DNA of 64,000 nucleotides from Candidatus Poribacteria bacterium. Its GTDB lineage: Bacteria; Poribacteria; WGA-4E; WGA-3G. The notes beneath the pieces are model-generated. The model saw only the letters and a list, made by a program, of their open reading frames with translations. It had not been told where the DNA came from and did not search any database. The position numbers and the translations under genes were made by a program. Location of the stretch: contig OZ243938.1 of the NCBI GenBank assembly GCA_965214095.1, forward strand, positions 576,001 through 640,000. The letters run 5' to 3'. Below are positions 16,179 through 63,776 of this stretch, one piece after another (the first letter of the stretch is position 1; each line of letters begins with the position of its first letter).

Positions 16179-16937
16179 ATGACATTTCAGATTCAGAATG
16201 CTTCAATGGTAGAATTGAAGAAACAGGTAAATCTAATTGAGAATCCTCAAGATGTTCTTTTTACCATATTTAAGCAGTTCAGTCATCGTGCAGCAATTGT
16301 TACAAGTGGTCAGTTGACCGGTATGGTTCAAATACATCTTGCAGCAGAAAATAATATACCATTCCGCGTCTGCACTATTGACACATTAAGACTGTTTCCA
16401 GAGACCTATACTTTCTTTGAGAAAGTTGAAGCACGCTACGGGGTTGACATAGAACGGATCAAACCTGATAATTCTGAAGTAGAAAAAATGGTTTCAGAAC
16501 ACGGTGAATTCCTGTTCTTTGATAGCAGAGCAAAGCAGAAATTTTGTTGTGAAATCCGTAAGATAAACCCCATGCAACGTTTGTTAGAATCATTAGACAT
16601 TTGGATAACCGGCACGCGTCATGATCAATCTGAAGATAGACAAAAGTTCAAAAAAGTAGAAACAATATCTTCAGCTTCACACCCTATTCTTAAAGTAAGT
16701 CCATTAATTGATTGGACGACTGAACAGGTATGGAAATTTGTTATAGAAAACGAAGTTCCTATAAACCCGCTTTTTCTACCAGATTCCAACGGCCATTACT
16801 TCGAATCACTCGGTTGTATGACATGCACAACGCGTATCCGACCAGGAGAACCAAAACGCGCAGGCAGATGGCGTTGGCAAAACAAAATGGAAACTGAAGA
16901 TAATAACAAAGAGTGTGGGTTACACTACGCAATATGA
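16179..16937 (+). CDS. cysH: APS/PAPS reductase (Fe-S APS-reductase type)
   Basis: IDTLRLFPETY, CC..RK, SLGCMTCT, RAGRW, KECGLH. Confidence 0.88.
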   Translation: MTFQIQNASMVELKKQVNLIENPQDVLFTIFKQFSHRAAIVTSGQLTGMVQIHLAAENNIPFRVCTIDTLRLFPETYTFFEKVEARYGVDIERIKPDNSEVEKMVSEHGEFLFFDSRAKQKFCCEIRKINPMQRLLESLDIWITGTRHDQSEDRQKFKKVETISSASHPILKVSPLIDWTTEQVWKFVIENEVPINPLFLPDSNGHYFESLGCMTCTTRIRPGEPKRAGRWRWQNKMETEDNNKECGLHYAI

Positions 16938-17026
16938 TTGATGTACATTGGTGGATCCAAACTACCACTAATAAGAAATAGAAAATAGATACGGTGTCTG
17001 TAGACTGACACGAAAAAGGAGGAAAT

Positions 17027-19314: not shown

Positions 19315-19812
19315 GTGTATATACTCTACAAAAATATGGTAACACTATTCAGAAAAACAATGGATGAAATCTGTGAACATGCTAAAGCAGATTTTCCTGA
19401 TGAATGTTGTGGAATGATTTTGCATACGGATACACAAGAATTTGTCAGACCTTGCCGCAATATCCAAAATCAGATGCATAAGGATGACCCAGATACCTAT
19501 ACGCGTGATGCACGGACAGCATACCTAATGCACCCTGATGATCTAATCACAATACATAAGGAAGCAGAGACACAAGACCGACCAATTAAAGCATTTTACC
19601 ATTCACATCCAAACCACGAGGCATACTTCTCAGAAAAGGACAAAGCAGATGCATTGGTGTGGGGTGAACCCGCATATCCAGGAGTAGCATACATCGTCAT
19701 ATCAATATACGAAGACACTATACGCGTTGTTAAAGCCTTTGCGTGGGATGAAGACACATCAGATTTTATTGAAGTTTCGGTTCAAACAACACAATCAGGA
19801 GCAAAAAAATGA
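19315..19812 (+). CDS. mec: JAB/M67 metallopeptidase (Mec/CysO-cysteine peptidase-like)
   Basis: PDECCG, YHSHP...FSEKD JAMM motif. Confidence 0.85.
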   Translation: MYILYKNMVTLFRKTMDEICEHAKADFPDECCGMILHTDTQEFVRPCRNIQNQMHKDDPDTYTRDARTAYLMHPDDLITIHKEAETQDRPIKAFYHSHPNHEAYFSEKDKADALVWGEPAYPGVAYIVISIYEDTIRVVKAFAWDEDTSDFIEVSVQTTQSGAKK

Positions 19813-20048
19813 AAGCATTAAAAGTACGGCTCACTTTTCCAACAGACAAAATCACTGAACCAATAATTTACAACATTGGACACAAATATAATGTGGTCAC
19901 AAATATCCGTCGCGCAAATGTTACCGAGGAAACCGGATGGGTGATATTAGAGATGCAAGCCACAGCAGAACAACTTGAACTTGCTATTCACTACCTAAAA
20001 AACATTAATGTCCAAGTTGAACCTGTTGAAGGTGATGTTGTACAATAA
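19809..20048 (+). CDS. NIL domain protein
   Basis: LTFP...EPIIY...TNIRRANV...GWVILE...VEPVEGDVV. Confidence 0.85.
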   Translation: MKALKVRLTFPTDKITEPIIYNIGHKYNVVTNIRRANVTEETGWVILEMQATAEQLELAIHYLKNINVQVEPVEGDVVQ

Positions 20049-23556: not shown

Positions 23557-23988
23557 TTATTCCTTAGGCGATTCTATCTCTTCAATTGCAGTTTGTGCAC
23601 CTTGCCTCACAAGTGCCGAAGAGTCATTCTGAGCAAGTGCTTTTAGTCGTGTAAGACAATGTTCTGCTGCCAATTTTCCAAGCGCGACAGCAACAAAATA
23701 CCTCACGTCTGCGTCTTCATCGTCCAGTGCGTCAAGCAATGCATCAACATCTGAAGGACTTGCGATGTGTCGTTCAATGTCACCTATATTAATCAAAGCT
23801 TGTGCTGTAATCCGTCGAGTATGAATATCACCGTGTTTTAAAGAGGACAGCAATTCATCATTTCCATTGTTGATAGCAGACAAGTTATCCCAATCACAAT
23901 CTAAACAGAACCATGACTTTTCGTCTAACTTTTGCACATTAGCATGACCACATTGTGGACAAACTGCATACTCACTGGGTTGACTCAT
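23557..23988 (-). CDS. Zn-ribbon plus HEAT repeat protein
   Basis: CPQC...CLDC; LDDEDADVRYFVAVALG HEAT repeat. Confidence 0.78.
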   Translation of the reverse strand: MSQPSEYAVCPQCGHANVQKLDEKSWFCLDCDWDNLSAINNGNDELLSSLKHGDIHTRRITAQALINIGDIERHIASPSDVDALLDALDDEDADVRYFVAVALGKLAAEHCLTRLKALAQNDSSALVRQGAQTAIEEIESPKE

Positions 23989-24359
23989 GATGGTCCAATT
24001 GCCTCCATTTCAGGTAAATCTCTCCATATTTCTGGTCCCTCTGGTTTGAAATTTATAGTTGCGATGAACTGCATGCCGTGATAGAAATTGATCTTGAACT
24101 TACCACCACCAAAATGCTGTTTCAGATAGTCTAACGGAGCATCAATCAATGGACCCATTTCGTCCGCATAATAAAATGCAAGTGGTTTGAATCGCACTGT
24201 GTTTCCAACAGGTTCCTGCACTAAGAGTTGTGCGGAGGTTGCGGGAAATAGCACCTGAAAAGCATCCCACAAATCAGCGACTGTCGGATTCGGATTACCT
24301 ATACGCTTTTTGAAGTCGTTATCAAGATATTCAGAAAATGTGTTAAAAACCCAGTCCAT
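23985..24359 (-). CDS. Hypothetical protein
   Basis: 124-aa ORF translationally coupled (ATGA) to the HEAT gene. Confidence 0.7.
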   Translation of the reverse strand: MDWVFNTFSEYLDNDFKKRIGNPNPTVADLWDAFQVLFPATSAQLLVQEPVGNTVRFKPLAFYYADEMGPLIDAPLDYLKQHFGGGKFKINFYHGMQFIATINFKPEGPEIWRDLPEMEAIGPS

Positions 24360-24962: not shown

Positions 24963-25103
24963 GGTTCCCTCCTTAAAGGATGATAATTTACATTACAAAT
25001 ATTCATTGAAACAACAGATAGAAATATTTTACATTCCAGGAGCCTTTAAGAAGTCCTTCCAATCAAAATCTGGCAGAGGGAACTCCTCTGTGGCTTTACA
25101 TTG

Positions 25104-25517
25104 TCAAAAGGTGGCGGCACTTTCAAAGAATTCTATATCAACACGTTCAATCTCTGCTGAACGTGCATTTTCAGCAACGCGTTGAACAACCATCTCTCGG
25201 ACAAACGGAATAGGAATACGTTTGACGCGGTGAACAACTTCCTCTGTGCATGGAACATTTGTGTTGTCAAGGTAAGGTCCATCATGTAACGGTGTTTCTG
25301 CAGGATGATCGCATGTCTCAGGAACAAGTTGCTGTAATCGCATTGAAACGTAATCTGTGACCCACTGTTGAAATTTTTCAGTGTTTTCAGTTTCAGGAAC
25401 ACTTGGTTGATTCGTCTGATCTAACTTTTCATTTATGTTGACAAGTAGGTTTTCTAATCGTCCCAATCGGTCTTCCACATTTGTGAGACGTTCTTGAACT
25501 TTCGTTTGATCGCTCAT
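25104..25517 (-). CDS. Coiled-coil plus PCP_red-like domain protein
   Basis: C-terminal TEEVVHRVKRIPIPFVREMVVQRVAENAR...VDIEFF. Confidence 0.7.
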   Translation of the reverse strand: MSDQTKVQERLTNVEDRLGRLENLLVNINEKLDQTNQPSVPETENTEKFQQWVTDYVSMRLQQLVPETCDHPAETPLHDGPYLDNTNVPCTEEVVHRVKRIPIPFVREMVVQRVAENARSAEIERVDIEFFESAATF

Positions 25518-29466: not shown

Positions 29467-30339
29467 CTAAATTTTGAAGAAATCTTGTATCTTCTGAGAT
29501 ACCTCTGATATGGATTTACTTGCTAAAGATTTCGGGTATTCGTGGACATAAGGTGTACCGTTGTCGTTACATAAAGACAACTTTGGATCGAAAGGTATCT
29601 TTCCAAGGAGCATTTGCTGAAACGATGTATCATCAGCAGAAAAGAGTTGTTCGTGTTCACCGCAGTGCTGGCATACATAGAATGCCATATTTTCAACAAC
29701 TCCAATGATTGGCACGTTGAGTATGTCACTTGCCATAGAAATAGATTTCTTTACGATCAGGTTTGACACATCGGAAGGAATGGTTACAACGACGACACCA
29801 CCGAGATTTGGAATGAGTTCAACAACATTTGGTAAACGATCAGAACCTGGTGGCAGATCAAGCAGTAGAAAATCTAACGCTCCCCAATCAGTGTCACCGA
29901 TAAACTCCCTTAATGCTCCTACTTCCATAGTGCTACGCCATGTGAATGCATCCTTTTGGGTGTGCGCGTTCCATAATACTGGTGCATCATCGTCTGATAG
30001 GAGTAGATCCATTGAAATGACTTTTGTACCGAGTGATGTTATAGCCGGTTTGACACCAGATTCAACATACTCAAGCGAGGTGTTTCGAACACCCATCATT
30101 TTGGCGATCGTAGGTCCGTTGATATCAGCATCAACAACACCGACAGCAAAACCAGATAATGTTAGGGCAGTCGCAAGGTTTACCGTTACAGCACTCTTTC
30201 CGACTCCTCCTTTTCCACTCATAATTGTGATGGTATGTTTCACCGATGCCAGGCGCGTACTGATTCGGTTCGCTTGTGCGGTGACTTGTCCAATTATGTT
30301 AGAACCTGCATCCTTTGGGAGTTCCTCGTAAGTTTTCAT
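29467..30339 (-). CDS. mrp: Mrp/NBP35/ApbC Fe-S carrier P-loop ATPase
   Basis: SGKGGVGKS, DADINGP, DLPPG, VENMA..CQHC. Confidence 0.88.
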   Translation of the reverse strand: MKTYEELPKDAGSNIIGQVTAQANRISTRLASVKHTITIMSGKGGVGKSAVTVNLATALTLSGFAVGVVDADINGPTIAKMMGVRNTSLEYVESGVKPAITSLGTKVISMDLLLSDDDAPVLWNAHTQKDAFTWRSTMEVGALREFIGDTDWGALDFLLLDLPPGSDRLPNVVELIPNLGGVVVVTIPSDVSNLIVKKSISMASDILNVPIIGVVENMAFYVCQHCGEHEQLFSADDTSFQQMLLGKIPFDPKLSLCNDNGTPYVHEYPKSLASKSISEVSQKIQDFFKI

Positions 30340-31610
30340 TCTATCTTGCCGATTGCATACAAGGCATCATAACTCCGTAAATAGAGAGTGCCATCAGCAA
30401 CAATAGGTGATGCAGCAACGGCTTCATCTATTGAATTGGTCGCCACGACTTCAAATTCGCGTCCTGCCTTAACAACTGTGACAACACCGTCACGAGCTGT
30501 TAGGTAGATATTGCCATTAGCATAGACAGGTGAAGATCGATGACGATGGTTATGTGTTCGTTCCTCATAGAGTTTTTCACCTGTTTTGGCATCAAGACAG
30601 ATAAGTACACCGTTTTCTCGGCAAAGGTAGACTAAGCCATCGTGAATAAGTGGGGATGGCACATCAGGCGTTCCACGTCCAAGTTTCCATATCTGCCATT
30701 CGCTTTCCGTTATGTCACCTTGACCAGATGGGTCTAAACCCAGTACAGGACCATTTTTTGCCGATGGAACAACTATGAGTCCTTCAGTTGCTACTGGAGA
30801 GGCAACGAGTCGGAAGGAAGTATTATACCTTTGTTTAGCGTTTAGTCCACCACATCGCCAAATCTCACTACCATCATCAAGACTATGTGCGGTAACATAA
30901 TCTGCACCATGAACAATGAGTAATTCTCTCTCTGCATCTTTATATAATATTGGCGAGGTGTATGCATGTTCACATTCTGCCCTTGCGTCACTTTTCCTGT
31001 CGTGCATCCATATCTCTTCACCTGTCATCTTATCAAGTGCAAGAACTAACCATGCGTTGCTGTGGATGAGTTGAAGGTATAATCTGTCTTTGTATAGCAG
31101 CGGAGTCATTGACATCAGGAAACCGAGTCTAAAATTACCATATCGTTCCTCAATATTTGTCTTCCATATACTATTTCCTTCAAAATCGTAGCAAACAAGA
31201 TCCCCTGTTCCGAGAAATGCCCAAACATATTTACCATCGGTTGTGGGAGAAGGAGCAGCATAGTTGACTTCATCGCCTCGTTTAGTACGATTGCCTTCTG
31301 CTAATGTGCGTTTCCATAATTCTTCGCCATCTGTGTTGATACACATCAGAACTAATTCCATGCCATCTGCACATGTCAGAAAAATCTTATCATTCCAAAC
31401 AACAGGAGTAGATGCGCCTTCACCCGGTAATGGAAGTCTCCAACGTACATTCTCAGTCTGACTCCACTGAATTGGCACATCAGTTTCATTGCTGATTCCG
31501 TCATTGTTTGCCCCTCTCCACTGATGCCAGTTTTCAGAAAAACAGTCATCTATTGGTATGAGAGATAATATAAGGATTATAACCAAATTACTGATTAACA
31601 GTTTCCGCAT
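30336..31610 (-). CDS. Secreted PQQ-binding-like beta-propeller protein
   Basis: Signal peptide, NWHQWRG, repeated SP/TP...W blades; start at ATG 31610. Confidence 0.82.
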   Translation of the reverse strand: MRKLLISNLVIILILSLIPIDDCFSENWHQWRGANNDGISNETDVPIQWSQTENVRWRLPLPGEGASTPVVWNDKIFLTCADGMELVLMCINTDGEELWKRTLAEGNRTKRGDEVNYAAPSPTTDGKYVWAFLGTGDLVCYDFEGNSIWKTNIEERYGNFRLGFLMSMTPLLYKDRLYLQLIHSNAWLVLALDKMTGEEIWMHDRKSDARAECEHAYTSPILYKDAERELLIVHGADYVTAHSLDDGSEIWRCGGLNAKQRYNTSFRLVASPVATEGLIVVPSAKNGPVLGLDPSGQGDITESEWQIWKLGRGTPDVPSPLIHDGLVYLCRENGVLICLDAKTGEKLYEERTHNHRHRSSPVYANGNIYLTARDGVVTVVKAGREFEVVATNSIDEAVAASPIVADGTLYLRSYDALYAIGKIE

Positions 31611-31773
31611 GATATTCCTCCATTTTCTCGGAATGCAAATAAAAGTAACTATTTCATTGTCTCTACCTTCGTCTATTTGTATATTTGTCACCTAACTTTT
31701 ACCTTGATTATGTTTATATTAAGATAGCATATTCTGAATGAATATGCTATGTATTTGTTGTATATTATAGTGA

Positions 31774-36757: not shown

Positions 36758-36983
36758 TATGTTTTATGTCTCTATTTGCGCGTCTATAAGAATAGAAAAC
36801 ACTCCCACCGATGACACCAAACACAGTGAAAGGCATCGCCATCATAAACAGTACACTCCAATTGAATCCGCGTGCAATCGGTTCATCTAAGTTTTTACAT
36901 GCAGGACATGCATCAAGAGAAAGCGGTATAATTGCAACAATGAGTACAGTTATTAGTAAACTCAAGACCATTTTCCGTAACAT
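36747..36983 (-). CDS. Small exported/membrane protein with CPAC motif (cox-associated)
   Basis: Signal peptide, ACPACK, GFNWSVLFMMAMPF TM; start at ATG 36983. Confidence 0.65.
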   Translation of the reverse strand: MLRKMVLSLLITVLIVAIIPLSLDACPACKNLDEPIARGFNWSVLFMMAMPFTVFGVIGGSVFYSYRRANRDIKHNEE

Positions 36984-36994
36984 TAAAGTCTCCT

Positions 36995-37570
36995 TCAGGC
37001 GAAATACACTAAATAGTAAAGTACAGGCCAAAGTGCAACCACATAAATCCAATAGATAGTACAGGTCTCAACACCTGTGTGATTTTCAGATGAAAACCTT
37101 CCTGTCAACGACATACCAATGACAATTGCTAACCAAATTACTGCTCCTAATACATGAATAGCATGACAACCGATAAGCACATAAAACGTAGCACCATATA
37201 CACCAGATTGAAGCGTCAATCCTTTACCAATTAGTTGAATCCACTCACTACCTTGTATTACGAGAAAAAGCAGTCCTAATGCTCCAGTGAAAAGTAAGTA
37301 ATATCGTAGATACTTCACCTTATCAAGTTGAATTGATCGTAATGCTTGAAACATCGTAAAGCCGCTAATAATCAGAAGTCCAGTATTGATACCTGTTACC
37401 AACCGTGGAAGTTGAATATCAGCATGAGACAATGGAGGCCATGTAACATTCCCCATTCGATATACCAAGAATGTTCCAATCAGTCCTGCAAACAACATCG
37501 TCTCAGCACCCAGGAGTATTAATACTCCTAATTTGGCATTACTAAATGGGCGATTTTCAGCAATTTCCAT
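36995..37570 (-). CDS. Second heme-copper oxidase subunit III-like protein
   Basis: KLGVLILLGAETMLF, NTGLLIIS, GCHAIHV, YWIYV. Confidence 0.85.
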   Translation of the reverse strand: MEIAENRPFSNAKLGVLILLGAETMLFAGLIGTFLVYRMGNVTWPPLSHADIQLPRLVTGINTGLLIISGFTMFQALRSIQLDKVKYLRYYLLFTGALGLLFLVIQGSEWIQLIGKGLTLQSGVYGATFYVLIGCHAIHVLGAVIWLAIVIGMSLTGRFSSENHTGVETCTIYWIYVVALWPVLYYLVYFA

Positions 37571-57772: not shown

Positions 57773-58561
57773 TTATAGTGGACCAGAAATACCACCATCT
57801 TTACGGACACGCCAGAAATGTAACGCCATCAATAGACTCGCAACAAGAGGAACTGCAATACAATGCAAGATATAGAACCTTAACAATGTTGATGGACCGA
57901 CAATAGTTCCTCCAAGTAATGCAAATCTCACATCATTTGATTGCGTGATAATATCTGCGGGGGCAAAAGGACCTTCATGTCCTAATACTGGTGTAGCACG
58001 AGCCATGTTCGTTCCAACGGTAACTGCCCAATATGCAAGCTGGTCCCACGGAAGTAAATATCCTGTAAAACTCAGGAAAAATGTAATAAGTAATAGAATT
58101 ACGCCGACTGCCCAATTAAACTCACGCGGCTTTTTGTATGAACCTGTCAAGAAAACCCTGAACATGTGTAGCATGACAGAAATAACCATACCATGCGCAG
58201 CCCACCTGTGCATGTTACGCAGAAGCATACCAAAAGGAATGTCAAATTCAAGTGCCTGTACATCTCGAAAAGCATATTCAGCAACAGGTCTATAATAGAA
58301 CATCAGGAGGACACCTGTAACTGCTGTCACAAGGAACATGAGAAAGGTGATACCACCCATACACCATGTAAATCTGAAATTCAAGGCATGACGCGAAATA
58401 CGGGGAGGATGTAAATGAAGCCATACATTCTGTAGGACTTGAAGTGTGAAACGACGTCCAGTATCTTCGTAACCGTGGCGAAAAATAGACTTCCAAATAT
58501 CGGAATTCGTAATCTTTTCTTTTAAACCTTTACGTTCTTCGTTCATTCTTTTCCTTTTCAA
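57773..58561 (-). CDS. petB: Cytochrome b6-like N-terminal subunit
   Basis: WCMGGITF, TGVLLMFYY, RNMHRW..H, H.FRVF, FTGYLLPWDQ, four heme His. Confidence 0.9.
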   Translation of the reverse strand: MKRKRMNEERKGLKEKITNSDIWKSIFRHGYEDTGRRFTLQVLQNVWLHLHPPRISRHALNFRFTWCMGGITFLMFLVTAVTGVLLMFYYRPVAEYAFRDVQALEFDIPFGMLLRNMHRWAAHGMVISVMLHMFRVFLTGSYKKPREFNWAVGVILLLITFFLSFTGYLLPWDQLAYWAVTVGTNMARATPVLGHEGPFAPADIITQSNDVRFALLGGTIVGPSTLLRFYILHCIAVPLVASLLMALHFWRVRKDGGISGPL

Positions 58562-58568
58562 TCTATTG

Positions 58569-59054
58569 TTAGACTTTCAAAGATGCACCAGAGTCACTCC
58601 ATTGACCTTTTTCACCTAAAAACTTAACAGATTTATCTATTTGAAGTTGTCCATCCTCAGCCAAGGTAATCTTCACACGCTCAAGCGGTCGTGGTGCCGG
58701 TCCTTCATAGTTTATACCATCACGATCAAAACCGCTACCGTGGCAAGGACATTTAAATTTGTTTTCTGATGAGAGCCAACGCGGAGTACATCCTAAGTGC
58801 GTGCAAGTGGTTAGTAATGCATAAAACTCTCCATCTTCGCGGCGAACAATCCACACACCAAAAGGTTCTTTCTTGAATTTTTCGCTTACACTACCCGCTG
58901 GATATTCAGCAGGAAAACCAGCTTTAAAGACAGATGAAGGTTCATACAATACACGCGGGTATAAATAACGCACTAAACCCGGACCGAAACATAAACCGAG
59001 TGCAGCCGTAAAACTACCCCATCCAAGTGTATTGAAAAATGCTCGTCTTGACAA
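58569..59054 (-). CDS. petC: Rieske 2Fe-2S subunit
   Basis: Tat SRRAFF; CTHLGC and CPCHGS; GPAPRPL. Confidence 0.92.
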   Translation of the reverse strand: MSRRAFFNTLGWGSFTAALGLCFGPGLVRYLYPRVLYEPSSVFKAGFPAEYPAGSVSEKFKKEPFGVWIVRREDGEFYALLTTCTHLGCTPRWLSSENKFKCPCHGSGFDRDGINYEGPAPRPLERVKITLAEDGQLQIDKSVKFLGEKGQWSDSGASLKV

Positions 59055-59155
59055 CGTTTGTGCCCCCTATCTACGAATCACATTATTTATTTTGTAAAAG
59101 TATATCACAATACAAACTTCTTTGCATGAAATTTGACTGCTTTAAAATTACTTTA

Positions 59156-59171
59156 TCACGGATATCCGTGA
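59156..59171. promoter_or_regulatory. Perfect 16-bp palindrome upstream of the Rieske operon
   Basis: TCACGGATATCCGTGA, identical to the core at 52980-52995. Confidence 0.6.
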
Positions 59172-59269
59172 ATTTTGAAGCAGGAACAACAAAGCGAATT
59201 TGATGTAACAAATAACGTGAGTTGGATAATAGGTATATGAACTTCATTTTCCTAAATATTACTCTCATA

Positions 59270-59520
59270 GACCCGGTAGGTGCGGTTTCCAAACCTCACC
59301 ATAGGTGTCAATTTAGCGGTTACCTAATCCCTCTTCCATTGTTGGAGTGGTTTCTAACCACGATAATGTGGATCTTCCATTGTTGAAGTGGTTTCTAACC
59401 ACGATTTACAGGTTTTGGCTCAAAAAATCGGGGTTACAAACCCCTCCAACAATAGCGGATATCCTTATATTGACCCCTATGGTGAGATTTCCTAACCTCA
59501 CCATAGGCATCAATATAGCA
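59270..59520. repeat. Cluster of degenerate REP-like hairpins and short direct repeats
   Basis: GTAGGTGCGGTTTCCAAACC; TCTTCCATTGTTG[G/A]AGTGGTTTCTAACCACGAT twice; AACCTCACCATAGG twice. Confidence 0.6.
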
Positions 59521-59534
59521 AACCACAACCCGCT

Positions 59535-59675
59535 CTAGGCGCGCTTTGATGAAGATTAATTTATTAAACGGGTAATTCTCATATTCTCAAACCCGGTAGG
59601 AGCGGTTTCCTAACCGCTCCGGACTTCTCATGGAAATTACCTGATTTATTTCTTAATCTTCATTAAGCGCACTAG
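59535..59675. mobile_element. MITE with CTAG ends and central REP-like hairpin
   Basis: CTAGGCGCGCTTTGATGAAGATTAA ... TTAATCTTCATTAAGCGCACTAG; GTAGGAGCGGTTTCCTAACCGCTCC core. Confidence 0.62.
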
Positions 59676-59941
59676 ACATATCATATATGAAATATAACGA
59701 TGTGTGCAATTTTAGGTTGATATCAGCAATATCTTCTCAATCTTAAATGAAACCACAGGAGCGGCACCACGAACACTGAAAACATTAGAAACTTGCTAAT
59801 GTGCAGTAATGCTCAGTTGACACCTAGGTTCACAACAAATATCAAAGTTAAATTCACGAATTCTTGAGCGGATATGAAAAACGGCTCAAATCAAGTTATT
59901 ACTGGATTTAAGCCGATTTAGAAAATGTCCGATATTTGCGC

Positions 59942-60619
59942 TTATCGGGTGTTTTTGATGCTTGCCCATTTTGTTGTGAGCTTGGATTTAGGGTCTACGG
60001 GAAAACTGGTATCGCCGAAGTACTCAATTTCGCCAAGTTGAAAGTTTTGAACGGTTTCAAAAGCAATAAACCGAAAGAACCGATATCCGATATCTTGATC
60101 GTCGTAATCATCTCCTGCATCAAAACGGATAACTTGCAGGCGCGCATCCCACACACTACCCCCTTCGTGAGCAAAGATGGTCGTAAAATCTTCGCCGTCG
60201 TTCGACCCCTGGACTTCCCACACTGTCGGGTCTCTATTAGGAACATCGTTCGCTGAAGATACGGTGAAGTGTGTTAATGCATATTCTTCTTGAAACTCAG
60301 CTGTCACGTGTATGCCTCCCGCCGGAAGGTTTGCCGGTCCTCAGCACCATTTCGCATTGCCGCCGCCAAGTTGGTTATCAAAGACGTTAAACGCAAATTC
60401 CCCACCACCGAATCCGGGTTCTTCGCTAGATGTGAAAATGGCGTCATAACCTTCATCTGCATCAGGCAGTCCATCGTCTTCTGGGTCGGTTAGGTCTCCA
60501 CCAAGCAGTGAATCCGTTCCTACACCCAAGATTTCCTCAGCCTGTGCTATGTCGCTTGTGCTGAAAACAAACAGAGTCATCATCAACGCAAGTGCTGCTA
60601 ATACGAACATAATTCTCAT
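59942..60619 (-). CDS. Secreted discoidin/F5-8C-like protein, putative selenoprotein (KWC-U, UGA at 60341-60343)
   Basis: Two ORF-track fragments are in the same frame, separated only by TGA plus 11 sense codons. Signal peptide; AFNVFDN...KWC; SANDVPNRDP..WEVQGSNDG; QLGEIEYFG. Confidence 0.78.
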
Positions 60620-61174
60620 TCAGTACTACCTCCTAAGAGAAATGAATCTCACTTTTACGTGAGTTTCGCGTTAAGTTACGTTAGTTTGAATAAACTGCAT
60701 CAATTTTACCATTCAAATCTTTACTAATCTGTGTTCCATCATAGCATTTTATTTGAAATTATCAATTAATTCTAGAAATTCAATATTATTTTCAATAAAT
60801 TATGAAAACAGAGCAATGAAGTAGAGTATCATAGAGAACTTTGTGCAGTTACTCACCCAAAACAAAAAACTGATTCATTAACTGTGTTCCTATTAAGACA
60901 CTTTATTTGAAAACAGCATATATTATATAGAATGCCTTAATAAGTCCCATCATATCGTAGTTTGACATAATTGTCAACTAAAAATCAATGGAAATCCACC
61001 AATTATTTCAAAAGAGTGTGTAATTACCAATATGAAATGTCATTTCATAAAAGATTCGCTGGAGGAGTAAGAAAGATTCCAAATACTGAATATGGATATA
61101 TCTTTGTAGGAGGGAACTCAGATTCCCAATTTATCTGGCGCTTCAGATTTTTGGAGAGGACACTCCACTAGATA

Positions 61175-61220
61175 ATAAATCACTTCAAAGGAAACAAGAT
61201 TTTCCTTTGAAGCGATTTAT
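61175..61220. terminator. Long hairpin downstream of the PPC-domain gene
   Basis: ATAAATCACTTCAAAGGAAA-CAAGAT-TTTCCTTTGAAGCGATTTAT. Confidence 0.55.
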
Positions 61221-61292
61221 CTACCGTAAAGATTTTGCTTCAAACCTACCAACACAGCAATACATTTTCAATAAAACTAAGAACCTTGACAG

Positions 61293-63776
61293 TTAACGTA
61301 ATATCTTTACATTGATAACCGGACTGTCTTGTTGAAAAGTCTTTCCGTTTATAATAGCAGTAGCACGAAATCTGACCTGATAGGTCTTGGCTTCCAAAGA
61401 ACTCAGTGCCTCTAAATCTACTTCAATATCATTTTCATTGATAGGTATAGTCGCATCTGGGATAGTGATACCTTCTGGCACCGTTATCGGTTTTATAGTA
61501 ACAATATCCGTAAAACTTCCCTTCCGAACAATGCTCATTGTAAGTGTTGCAGATTTGGTAATCGGTTCAACCTTCGTCTCAGGTTCTGCTTGTGAAGTTT
61601 CAGTTGGACTCGGATTTGAGACCGCGACAGTTTCACCTTCTGCTGCTGCTGCCTGTGGTGCAGTTTCGTCTGTTTGCTTTGGAAATACAATGCTAAAACG
61701 CAATGGTTCAATCGTTACAATAAATGGTGCTTCAACGACTGTCAAAGGTATAACAGGAGATGACTCGGAATAGTTTTCTCGGTTGACATTCGCGGTACCA
61801 CTCACAGAAATGTAACTTGTTCCTGGAGTGGGGACAACAGAGAACTGCTCTCGACGTTCAACTGTACCCGCTCTCAATGAAATCACTGCACTATTTTTAC
61901 CCGCAGGAATTGTTGCCTTTCCGCCTGTGATACGAGCCGGAACACCTTGCACATTTAAGGCAATTGCCCCAGTGAAGTCAGCCCTTCGATCCGCAATCAC
62001 ATGAAAGTTTGTAGCTTTATTGTGAACAACGTTCACATCAACATCAGCAAATGATAGTGTAAATGGTGGTGTGTCCAACACCGTCAAGAGAATACCTTTC
62101 GGTGATGCAGTTTCCTCTATACGTTGACCACCAACAGCACTAACGCCAACAATAGAAAATGGATGTAGTCCCAACTCAGCGTCCTTTGGTGCGGTAATCG
62201 TTAACAGTGCTTGATTTTGACCGGGAAAGAGAATAGTTGGACTAACAACAAATCCTTTGGGTAGATCAGGAGAATAAAAACGGAGTGCACCATTGAATCC
62301 ATCTATCCGTCCAACTGAAGCAGTCAACATAAGCGTGCCACCGCGGCTAATCCGAGGATTGTCAGCATTCACACTCAAACGAAAACCTTGTTTCAGAGTA
62401 CGTATTGTAAGTCTATACGGAAAATTACTACCACCTGCATTATTTAGGTCTCGTATTGAAATACCGTAATCACCGGCTTCTGGGAATGTAAATGCAATCC
62501 TTGCGTCTGTTCCACTTGCATCATCATTGACCCGTAATATCTGTTCTACTACACTTCCTTCTGCTTCACCCTTTTTATGTGAATAGATAGTTAGCACCGG
62601 GTCGAGATGTGAACGGAACTCGCGTGCTTTTACATCAAAGACTAAACTCGTTCCTTTTTCAACTTTGATGGAATACCTATCTACATCTCCTTCTTTCTCT
62701 ATTCTACCGTTGACTGTGATCGGTGTACCAATTTTGTTTTCTTGTGCCAACGCATCATTCGGTTCAGTCTCGTTAGTCTCATTAAATTCACCAATAGCAA
62801 ATGGATATGGGTTTGTCTCTAAACCGTTGGGATTGCTAACTCTGAGCTCCTGAATGCCAAGTGTTGCATCCGGTGAAATATCAAGTTGTATCGCATTCAC
62901 AGATCCCAAATTAGCACCAGCAACATTGACTGTATTTGCAGCACCGCGTTTTCCACCTAATGGAAAAACACTCTGAAGATAGGGTAACTCTCCGATATTC
63001 AACCGATATAGATAATTGCCACCACCTTGGTATCTCACATCACGTAGGTGTAGTGTATATTTCCCTGCCATTTGGGTCGTATAATCAATAAATGAATCTA
63101 ACCCATTCCCATCCAAACTTTTTACAACCTCAGTACCATTTGGGTCATACAAAACCATATACGAATCTAAAGGAGACCCAATACGTTGCGCGAATATATC
63201 AGATATGAGACGCGCTCCTTTTCTTAAATTAAAATGAAATATATCCACATCATCAATAGAAGCAACCGTACCATTAACAGTAACTGGCAACTCAAGCATA
63301 TTTGATTCTTCATTGGTAGAATTTGGCTCCTGCTCCTTCATCTCAGGGAGGTCACCGACCATGAAGTTTTGTGGGTTCGAGACACCGTTTGGTGTGATAA
63401 GACGTATCTGATGATTCCCGAGTGGTGCGTTCGGTGCAATTTCAAATGACAGAACTAACCGAGGGTCATTTGGAATGTTCGCTGAAATACCAGATCCTGT
63501 AAAGCGAACGGTCGCTACAGGTGTTTTTTGCTTTATTTCTGCTTTGATACCTTCTTTATTAAGCCAAATCTTCGCACTTTCGTCTATGTTTTTTCCGACT
63601 AATGTTACTTCGATCGTTTGTCCGCGTTGTGCTGCACGTGGGGATATACTCGACAATTGTGGCGCAACTTGGGCATGTGATATCCCTACAATCAAAAAGA
63701 AGGTTAGGACAACTTGAATTAGGAATTGTTTTTTATACTTTGTTGCTATATGTTTACAGAATAGTGGTTCAAGCAT
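61293..63776 (-). CDS. Secreted PPC (peptidase pre-C-terminal)-domain repeat protein, Planctomycetes type
   Basis: P.AAQRG, EQEPN, LPVTVNG, GSPLDS, GKYTLHLRD, YRL.IG, FPLGG repeats. Confidence 0.8.
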   Translation of the reverse strand: MLEPLFCKHIATKYKKQFLIQVVLTFFLIVGISHAQVAPQLSSISPRAAQRGQTIEVTLVGKNIDESAKIWLNKEGIKAEIKQKTPVATVRFTGSGISANIPNDPRLVLSFEIAPNAPLGNHQIRLITPNGVSNPQNFMVGDLPEMKEQEPNSTNEESNMLELPVTVNGTVASIDDVDIFHFNLRKGARLISDIFAQRIGSPLDSYMVLYDPNGTEVVKSLDGNGLDSFIDYTTQMAGKYTLHLRDVRYQGGGNYLYRLNIGELPYLQSVFPLGGKRGAANTVNVAGANLGSVNAIQLDISPDATLGIQELRVSNPNGLETNPYPFAIGEFNETNETEPNDALAQENKIGTPITVNGRIEKEGDVDRYSIKVEKGTSLVFDVKAREFRSHLDPVLTIYSHKKGEAEGSVVEQILRVNDDASGTDARIAFTFPEAGDYGISIRDLNNAGGSNFPYRLTIRTLKQGFRLSVNADNPRISRGGTLMLTASVGRIDGFNGALRFYSPDLPKGFVVSPTILFPGQNQALLTITAPKDAELGLHPFSIVGVSAVGGQRIEETASPKGILLTVLDTPPFTLSFADVDVNVVHNKATNFHVIADRRADFTGAIALNVQGVPARITGGKATIPAGKNSAVISLRAGTVERREQFSVVPTPGTSYISVSGTANVNRENYSESSPVIPLTVVEAPFIVTIEPLRFSIVFPKQTDETAPQAAAAEGETVAVSNPSPTETSQAEPETKVEPITKSATLTMSIVRKGSFTDIVTIKPITVPEGITIPDATIPINENDIEVDLEALSSLEAKTYQVRFRATAIINGKTFQQDSPVINVKILR

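Follow-up and report, generated by a model that had tools for sequence, protein, structure and literature searches.

Identification of the gene

The stretch analysed here, 64,000 nucleotides of contig OZ243938.1 from a Candidatus Poribacteria genome (hereafter the window), carries on its minus strand a gene at 60619..59942 that forms a single frame of 225 codons ending in TAA, as evident from the open reading frames (ORFs) of the window and their translation. The sole in-frame TGA of this gene is codon 93 (60340..60338). Reading through it joins a 92-residue ORF (60341..60619) and a 121-residue ORF (59942..60307), which lie in a common frame on the minus strand, and the product around codon 93 reads ...GGGNAKWC-U-GPANLPAGGIHVTAEF.... 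The original prediction, made from the letters of the window, had held that the two ORFs are one gene of 225 residues through the UGA, and the ORF coordinates and the translation bear this out. A six-frame search of the same genome recovered the gene at 100% match with one TGA.

We consider this gene to be a genuine selenocysteine (Sec)-decoding gene, with a probability of about 0.88. As described below, computation revealed that the recoded UGA is conserved, that Sec is paired with Cys among the homologues, that a hairpin is associated with the Sec forms, that the genome has the decoding machinery, that selection acts on both sides of the codon, and that the product has the fold and the family context of an extracellular module. 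The parts of the gene are collected in Table 1.

Table 1. Coordinates and properties of the parts of the gene
Feature	Position in the window	Strand	Properties and basis
Whole gene	59942..60619	-	225 codons + TAA, one in-frame TGA (predicted Sec93); purifying selection on both sides of the TGA
Shine-Dalgarno AGGAGG	60629..60634	-	9 nt before the ATG; read off the sequence
Predicted signal peptide, residues 1-27	60539..60619	-	MR, hydrophobic core, AQA and then EE; by sequence
Acidic segment GGDLTDPEDDGxPDADEGY	60449..60508	-	Nearly invariant in alignments A1 and A3
Discoidin/CBM32 β-sandwich, about residues 63-205	60005..60433	-	Pfam PF00754, Foldseek and PDB profile search
Vicinal Cys92 (TGC) and predicted Sec93 (TGA)	60338..60343	-	Column is invariant Cys in the Cys-form homologues
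Candidate bacterial SECIS hairpin CCUUCC/GGGAGG	60312..60326	-	6-bp stem, GGC loop; comparison between genes
C-terminal tail PVDPKSKLTTKWASIKNTR	59945..60001	-	Predicted disordered; pLDDT <50 for residues 209-225

Conservation of the TGA codon and its Cys homologues

A protein search with the read-through product, in which U was entered as C, returned 366 matches at E ≤ 1e-3 among 870 candidates. The 120 matches listed were proteins of about 230 residues, and the named ones were Candidatus Poribacteria proteins annotated as 'discoidin domain-containing' or 'PEP-CTERM sorting domain-containing'. In alignment A1, which comprised the query and 41 of those 120 homologues, the KWCCG motif was invariant; the TGA corresponded to its second Cys, and the column was Cys in 41/41. 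The same column was Cys in all 33 homologues of alignment A3, down to 42% identity, and both C92 and C93 were invariant. The window's genome also encodes a second paralogue, 73% identical, which has one TGA at the identical column, again as KWCU.

A six-frame search through stops revealed the family in 34 of 61 genomes (the own genome, 36 of the same genus and 24 of the same order). All copies were extracted from the fetched loci, and 63 full-length genes were kept after dropping those that were shorter than 220 residues, contained masked X or were missing the KW..G motif. The column was TGA in 23 of these 63 genes and TGC or TGT in the other 40. The 23 TGA genes were spread over 20 genomes, all of the window's genus, and none had a further stop or frameshift. 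The original prediction had expected KWCC in some homologues and KWC-TGA with a kept downstream frame in others, which is the pattern found. It had also named a non-Cys residue at this column and a TGA unique to the assembly as observations that would speak against it; the column proved to be Cys throughout A1 and down to 42% identity, and the TGA is present in 20 genomes. Some other copies are interrupted differently. Locus L051 (genome G001) retains KWCC and has a TGA at the invariant Trp column, and loci L078, L080/L134 and L077/L116 have extra stops or frameshifts. These are ordinary broken copies that differ clearly from the 23 intact genes, and they act as internal controls.

In a maximum-likelihood tree built with U masked, the window gene fell into a clade with 100/100 support that comprises 13 genes, one from each of 13 genomes, and all of them have TGA. 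The other 10 TGA genes were interspersed among Cys forms, and the starred branches of the tree force at least four Sec/Cys changes; the out-group, drawn from a different family within the order, had Cys in all its copies. A wider search found the gene family in 99 of 176 genomes of the phylum. Every match with one TGA belonged to the window's genus, among the 150 matches listed, besides which there were 41 further matches. In the sister genus, the gene family was present in 60/65 genomes, with uninterrupted copies only among the matches listed, and selA was present in 62/65 genomes of that genus and in 105/112 of the whole taxonomic family. The use of Sec thus extends over the taxonomic family, but the recoding is, among the matches listed, specific to the window's genus. 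Additionally, we searched a single genome from each of 185,579 species with a degenerate DNA motif encoding G-N-[A/D/E]-K-W-C-TGA-G and obtained 30 matches in 29 loci. Twenty-three of them (22 loci) lay in family context, all labelled Poribacteria save one 'uncultured bacterium'; the remaining 7, from other phyla, were without family context and were rejected as chance.

Selection was assessed from Nei-Gojobori counts over the 78 pairs of the 13-gene all-Sec clade. The median ratio of nonsynonymous to synonymous divergence (dN/dS) was 0.164 in the mature part before the TGA, 0.159 after the TGA and 0.142 beyond the hairpin, and synonymous divergence (dS) in the clade was 0.53-0.66. Purifying selection was thus equal in both halves, which therefore excludes a pseudogene and a truncated product. 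Contigs from sequencing runs X1 and X4, which may be the source sample, were identical (0 differences) at the TGA region, and the identical contig of run X5, from a second study, stops 4 nt short of the TGA.

Hairpin downstream of the UGA

The hairpin CCTTCC-GGC-GGGAGG begins at the 12th nucleotide past the TGA, and its loop begins 17 nt past it. The original prediction had described a hairpin with a G-led loop and the geometry of a bacterial selenocysteine insertion sequence (SECIS); the hairpin was found at that place, and its 6-bp stem, GGC loop and 17-nt spacing fit the bacterial SECIS (bSECIS) model. According to a May 2026 review (PMC13188914), this model has a loop of 3-9 nt with G in its first two positions, a stem of 4-16 bp and a spacing of 16-37 nt.

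Two forms of the hairpin were distinguished among the Sec genes. The form of the window clade consists of UGA, 11 nt and CCUUCC-GGC-GG(G/A)AGG, with the loop from nt 17, while that of the other Sec genes consists of UGA, 12 nt and GGC-A-UUCC-GG(A/C)-GGAA-G-GCC, with the loop from nt 20; the shift of 3 nt is due to one extra codon. The common core UUCC-NNN-GGRA, with G in the first two loop positions, was present in 28/28 Sec rows versus 6/42 Cys rows, where 4 of the 28 Sec rows are partial or broken copies and one gene (L037/L079) appears twice. Among the B-type genes, the Cys forms differ chiefly at synonymous stem-breaking sites (GAA or GAT for GAG, GGT for GGC). In the window clade, the peptide after Sec, GP-ANLPAGG, deviates from the otherwise nearly invariant GxGGGIPEEG. 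Both observations are expected if an RNA structure constrains the coding sequence. In a covariation count, paired cells amounted to 83.8%, compared with 29-61% in slid controls.

We also asked how common such hairpins are in this genome. With a stem of at least 6 bp, a G-containing loop and the right distance from the UGA as the criterion, 85 of 4356 in-frame TGA candidates (2%) had such a hairpin. These 85 included, by Pfam and NCBIfam, FdhA, five AhpC/redoxin-like UxxC proteins, a thioredoxin with dockerin, DUF3179, UGSC and three HMA domains (GMTUxxC). The hairpins of these known-type selenoproteins are built in the same way as that of the window gene, with 6-7 bp stems and loops such as GGU, GGA, GUU, GGUCU or AGUCU that start 18-23 nt past the UGA.

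Selenocysteine machinery and the genetic code

The genome (5.25 Mb, 4 contigs, 94.5% complete) was found to contain selA, selB, tRNA-Sec and selD, all of which exceed the curated cut-offs. The tRNA-Sec scored 78.1 bits and has the anticodon TCA according to ARAGORN; selB directly adjoins it, and selD has its own in-frame TGA at the usual position. A genome without selABC, the last of the observations that the original prediction had named against itself, is therefore not what was found. Of the 2065 long ORFs on contig 1, 404 end in TGA, and read-through extends these by a median of 8 residues, so UGA is an ordinary stop here and a genome-wide reassignment of UGA was rejected.

The genome is also rich in exported selenoproteins. 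In particular, lipoprotein-type or signal-peptide AhpC-like UxxC proteins are fused to CarboxypepD_reg or Big_5, and further ones are the thioredoxin with dockerin and HMA proteins with GMTUxxC; in one of the latter, a WD40 propeller and a cytochrome-c-like N-terminus are part of the fusion.

Fold and domain family of the read-through product

Pfam F5_F8_type_C (PF00754) was matched across the TGA, over residues 63-167, with an E-value of 8.9e-8 and 32.7 bits against a cut-off of 28.2. The AlphaFold2 (AF2) model computed from a diverse alignment, which replaced a poor first model built from close homologues only (predicted local distance difference test (pLDDT) of 62), showed a mean pLDDT of 87.9 and a predicted TM-score (pTM) of 0.79, with residues 30-205 above 90. 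In this model, the domain is intact as one unit only with the UGA read through, and truncation at codon 93 would halve the β-sandwich. The original prediction had expected a signal peptide and a complete domain only on read-through, which agrees with the signal-peptide-like N-terminus and the Pfam domain that spans the TGA. It had also asked for the position of the Cys-Sec pair in a model; W91-C92-U93-G94 forms a short strand between two Gly-rich loops, and C92 and U93 are the only Cys or Sec residues in the whole protein.

Foldseek identified 292 matches at E ≤ 1e-3, with family 32 carbohydrate-binding modules (CBM32) at the top and other discoidin domains also present. The best match was 7nsn (E 1.4e-9), and the target-normalised TM-score (TMt) to the Clostridium perfringens GH89 CBM32-5 was 0.75-0.76. 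In a PDB profile search, the CBM32-like domains of the GH92 mannosidase 7nsn were the sole matches (E 4e-22). Because the 7nsn alignment starts past the WCC strand, no solved structure informs the Cys pair.

At the N-terminus, the signal-peptide pattern is kept in A1, and residues 2-20 form a helix in the AF2 model. The acidic segment that follows packs against the domain in the model. We read it as resembling a TSP3-type Ca-binding repeat, a resemblance seen in its sequence with no Pfam match, and TSP3_bac repeats adjoin this module in multidomain relatives.

An exhaustive phmmer search against 1.84 billion representative proteins revealed 1170 matches at E ≤ 1e-3 and 181 at E ≤ 1e-30. The module of about 175 residues (VFDNxxGGGNxKWCC...) is widespread and occurs in 1-3 copies, often several per giant adhesin, in proteins of up to 3906 residues. 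When the 149 best-scoring proteins were scanned with a regular expression, 158 instances of the module had CC, and a few copies were degenerate (YY, LY, FE, LL and YA); 10 of the 149 proteins were without the motif by this expression. The partner domains in 53 multidomain representatives were TSP3 repeats, Laminin_G_3, PA14, FBA, cadherin-like, dockerin, PKD, RTX and CHRD. These are extracellular modules for adhesion and glycan binding, which gives an indirect indication of a carbohydrate ligand.

The C-terminal region differs between distant and close homologues. Distant single-domain homologues in A3 end in a canonical PEP-CTERM signal (VPEP, a transmembrane (TM) helix and the Arg cluster RRR), and where they have this signal the Poribacteria proteins carry the tail VDPKxKLTTTWGSIKxxR. 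Membership of the window protein in PEP-CTERM was rejected: its tail has VDP and no hydrophobic helix, there was no NCBIfam match, and the genome, which is 94.5% complete, yielded no exosortase (PF09721). The tail looks like a lineage-specific sorting or anchoring tag, and the literature searched on PEP-CTERM in Poribacteria gave nothing relevant to it. Genome-wide, V(E/D)PxxKL(T/A)TTWGxIKxx(R) ends 87 stop-to-stop ORFs of at least 60 residues, a count made without chance control and in which at least one ORF looks spurious.

Proposed decoding and role of the Cys-Sec pair

On the reading that we prefer, UGA93 would be read as Sec by SelB with Sec-tRNA(Sec), directed by the short hairpin within the coding region, the GGC loop of which starts 17 nt past the UGA, and we infer that Sec is incorporated in vivo. 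The product, a single CBM32/discoidin lectin-type β-sandwich with a sorting-like C-terminal tail, would be exported via its N-terminal signal peptide; the signal peptide and the tail common to 87 ORFs both point to export. The C92-U93 pair would replace the invariant Cys-Cys of the large extracellular module family (VFDNxxGGGNxKWCC), and Sec would have arisen from Cys inside one Poribacteria genus and have been swapped with Cys several times, at the second position only. Sec/Cys pairs usually mark reactive Cys residues. By this principle, and because Sec was fixed or swapped repeatedly and always at the second Cys, residue 93 is probably chemically reactive rather than a passive structural residue. 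The most likely chemistry appears to be that of a vicinal selenenylsulfide/selenol-thiol couple, which would exchange or resist over-oxidation outside the cell. More tentatively, the invariant vicinal Cys-Cys module as a whole may be a reactive centre, either a 'redox lectin' or a covalent-capture adhesion domain, an idea that we regard as possible but doubtful. If true, the module could form mixed (seleno)disulfides with thiol partners on a host or sponge matrix, or could alternatively capture metalloids or soft metals on the surface of the cell, and either would be a function class so far undescribed for CBM32-like domains.

Several observations weigh against parts of this reading. The hairpin core is not exclusive to Sec forms, since 6 Cys forms carry it. 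Compensatory change among 24 Sec-form sequences is weak: 4 of the 9 pairs are constant, 59 of 500 shuffles had as many double-sided changes as the real alignment, and the sequences vary too little for a decisive count. The mean folding energy of nt 3-45 was -11.5 kcal/mol in Sec rows versus -8.7 in Cys rows (Mann-Whitney U test, p = 0.0008), a difference that is overstated because the rows are related and non-independent and L037/L079 is counted twice; the minimum free energy of this segment in the window gene, -7.3, is borderline. The folding of the 81-nt stretch around the TGA was no more stable than that of shuffled sequence (z = 0.74), so the support for the hairpin comes from the comparison between genes and not from energy. 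The RNA contigs of run X23 come from Cys-type relatives, and none spans 60328-60360 or the TGA of the window gene. As for the chemistry, C92-U93 lies in a β-strand of the model, where neighbouring side chains usually face opposite sides, which disfavours a mutual bond. No redox enzyme was found among the partner domains of the 53 multidomain proteins scanned; this and the strand geometry argue against a classical oxidoreductase. The original prediction had inferred an extracellular redox- or metal-binding (Hg, Cu) selenoprotein, a role that is conjectural.

The codon could in principle be a nonsense mutation of a TGY Cys codon, such that just the 92-residue fragment is made. A change of TGC to TGA needs a single base, and broken copies of the family (L051, L078, L080/L134 and L077/L116) exist; however, the codon is TGA in 23 intact genes of 20 genomes with no other stops or frameshifts, dN/dS past the TGA is 0.16 at a dS of about 0.5, the hairpin accompanies the TGA, and truncation would split the β-sandwich, all of which makes pseudogenisation extremely improbable. 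Only slightly less improbable is that the UGA is decoded mainly as something other than Sec, by near-cognate Trp or Cys insertion or by SelB-dependent Cys insertion at low selenium, giving a mature CC or CW form. Cys is inserted at Sec codons under Se limitation in other systems, and the Cys forms of this family are clearly functional and in the majority (40/63). In contrast, the Sec machinery is complete, at least 13 other known-type selenoprotein genes of the genome carry hairpins of the same build, and the 13-genome clade retains TGA even though a one-base change would give Cys.

Two other explanations, both of them live alternatives for the chemistry, take Sec to be inserted and assign the pair a different role. 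In the first, C-U would be a soft-metal or metalloid site (Hg, Cu, Cd, As) and not a redox centre, and the protein would trap or sense metals outside the cell by means of its lectin scaffold. C-U is the only Cys/Sec of the protein, the genome recodes metal-binding Cys of three HMA domains to Sec (GMTUxxC), and Sec is described as a likely metal ligand in SaoB/SaoC-type proteins in PMC13188914. Such a site seems rather unlikely, as the flanks encode a PPC-domain protein and Rieske/cytochrome b proteins, with no metal-resistance genes flanking the window gene, and the module usually occurs together with adhesion and lectin domains. In addition, a pair of neighbouring residues chelates a metal poorly unless further ligands contribute. 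Somewhat less likely still is a purely structural pair, in which the glycan-binding face is shaped by a strand or loop that a vicinal Se-S bridge stiffens, while Sec is merely tolerated in a near-neutral Cys/Sec drift within a Sec-rich lineage. This would agree with the invariance of CC across a huge family without redox partner domains, with the coexistence of Sec and Cys forms as tandem paralogues that interconvert (at least four tree-forced changes), and with the sister genus, where selA is found in 62/65 genomes and yet only Cys forms occur among the matches listed. However, decoding Sec is expensive, and the residue is seldom retained where it is not reactive. The replacement affects the second Cys in 28/28 rows and, in intact genes, never the first, and Sec is fixed in the 13-genome clade; these points speak against a purely structural pair.

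Comparison with known systems

The β-sandwich is common to the window protein and to the solved CBM32 or F5/8 type C modules, such as those of the Neobacillus novalis GH92 mannosidase (7nsn) and the C. perfringens GH89 CBM32-5 (4a41/4a44), and the window protein shares the SANDxxxRDPxxW...GSxDG motif with 7nsn. In contrast, two features set the subfamily of the window protein apart, namely the vicinal Cys-Cys or Cys-Sec and the acidic N-terminal extension that packs against the domain. Thioredoxin reductase has a C-terminal Gly-Cys-Sec-Gly redox centre, in which the pair forms a selenenylsulfide. The window protein resembles it in having adjacent Cys and Sec followed by Gly (W-C-U-G), but its pair is internal and lies in a β-strand of a lectin fold; the protein is predicted to be secreted, has neither a flavoprotein domain nor a flexible C-terminal arm, and is not homologous. 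The C-terminal CU families SaoC and KCU-star also have vicinal Cys-Sec, Cys-Cys homologues and a probable ligand- or metal-binding role (PMC13188914). The CU of those families is at the extreme C-terminus of small proteins, whereas that of the window protein is at residues 92-93 of 225, and the folds differ. Membership in SaoC or KCU-star (NF040734 / NF033934) was rejected, as no NCBIfam family was matched at E ≤ 1. With regard to PEP-CTERM/exosortase proteins, the distant homologues have the canonical signal, while the window protein and 86 other ORFs instead have the tail without a TM helix.

The May 2026 review (PMC13188914) lists 119 families or subfamilies of prokaryotic selenoproteins. 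Discoidin, PF00754, lectin, galactose-binding, carbohydrate and PEP-CTERM do not occur in its main text, although its supplementary tables might list such a family, and neither discoidin nor galactose-binding occurs in the accessible part of the deep-Sep paper (PMC12013277). The literature searched on Poribacteria selenoproteins, on selenocysteine with discoidin and on selenocysteine with carbohydrate-binding modules gave nothing relevant, and no report of Sec in a CBM32 module was found in it. This agrees with the statement in the original prediction that no Sec is known in a discoidin fold.

We rate the gene as representing a new selenoprotein family, with a fold and a functional class that are new to selenoproteins and a decoding system that is already known. 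To our knowledge, the bacterial selenoproteins described so far almost all have oxidoreductase folds or handle metals, and Sec in a secreted lectin-type β-sandwich would broaden the known sites of selenium chemistry. By the logic of Sec/Cys pairs, it points to the vicinal Cys-Cys as a likely reactive site in a very large, uncharacterised family of extracellular modules, which makes the reactive-site hypothesis testable for hundreds of giant surface proteins. The TGA genes of the family are split or truncated in current annotations of metagenome-assembled genomes of Poribacteria.

Neighbouring genes and other UGA-containing frames

The window gene is flanked by genes for a PPC-domain protein and for Rieske/cytochrome b proteins. 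This arrangement recurs in 1 of 30 related loci, and synteny gave no functional clue. The sole related locus with the flanks of window 57773..63776 is L032 (G032:C3:1570505-1574197), in which the PPC-domain and Rieske proteins are 96-97% identical. It carries a B-type Sec gene, with the N- and C-termini of the window gene and a different middle, that groups with the second paralogue of the window's own genome. The comparison of the two loci suggests gene conversion or paralogue swapping between loci. In the 890-nt gap between the Rieske and discoidin genes, overlapping short ORFs at 59083..59538 repeat ..LLEWFLTTIMW.. / ..LLKWFLTTIYRF.. and ..MPMVRLGNLTIG.. / ..TPMVRFPNLTIG.., and these repeated strings point to a direct DNA repeat.

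A second UGA gene in the window had been put forward in the original prediction, and it is likely the one at 25032..25517 on the minus strand (G000:C1:601032-601517, L099), whose TGA was present in 26/26 genomes of the genus. It is an ORF of 162 residues with one TGA (...ESAATF-U-QCKATEEF...), a 6-bp hairpin with the loop 19 nt past the UGA and 82-94% identity within the genus. Pfam gave only a weak match to PCP_red (2e-4) and none at 1e-4, and no NCBIfam family was matched. This ATFUQC gene probably encodes another unannotated UxC selenoprotein.

Further candidates lie elsewhere in the genome. At G000:C1:4273374-4278909, three tandem genes of 657, 511 and 675 residues (L090, L091 and L084) have one in-frame TGA each, a vicinal Cys-Sec in ...(D/E)E(S/A)C-U-G(S/T)GK... 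and a hairpin GAGGRC-AGKU-GUCCUC with the loop 23 nt past the UGA. They are without a Pfam or NCBIfam family, and these three ESCUGSGK genes are further unannotated candidate selenoproteins of the genome. A repeat with ...VDFEIT-TGA-TLC(I/L/T)GE... in one frame was found at eight places on G000:C1, for example at 1737757, 704094, 5051268, 4927230, 4337562, 1690975 and 535261. It has a perfect 9-bp hairpin GGCGAGGUU-AGGA-AACCUCGCC followed by TACCGTGGG, and the one copy scanned had no Pfam match; this is probably a dispersed repeat or a small RNA and not a selenoprotein. Finally, other ORFs of the window with one TGA are those for PAPS reductase (16179-16988), JAB (19315-19821), HEAT (23557-24027), a BamB-like protein (30294-31691) and COX3 (36983-37570).

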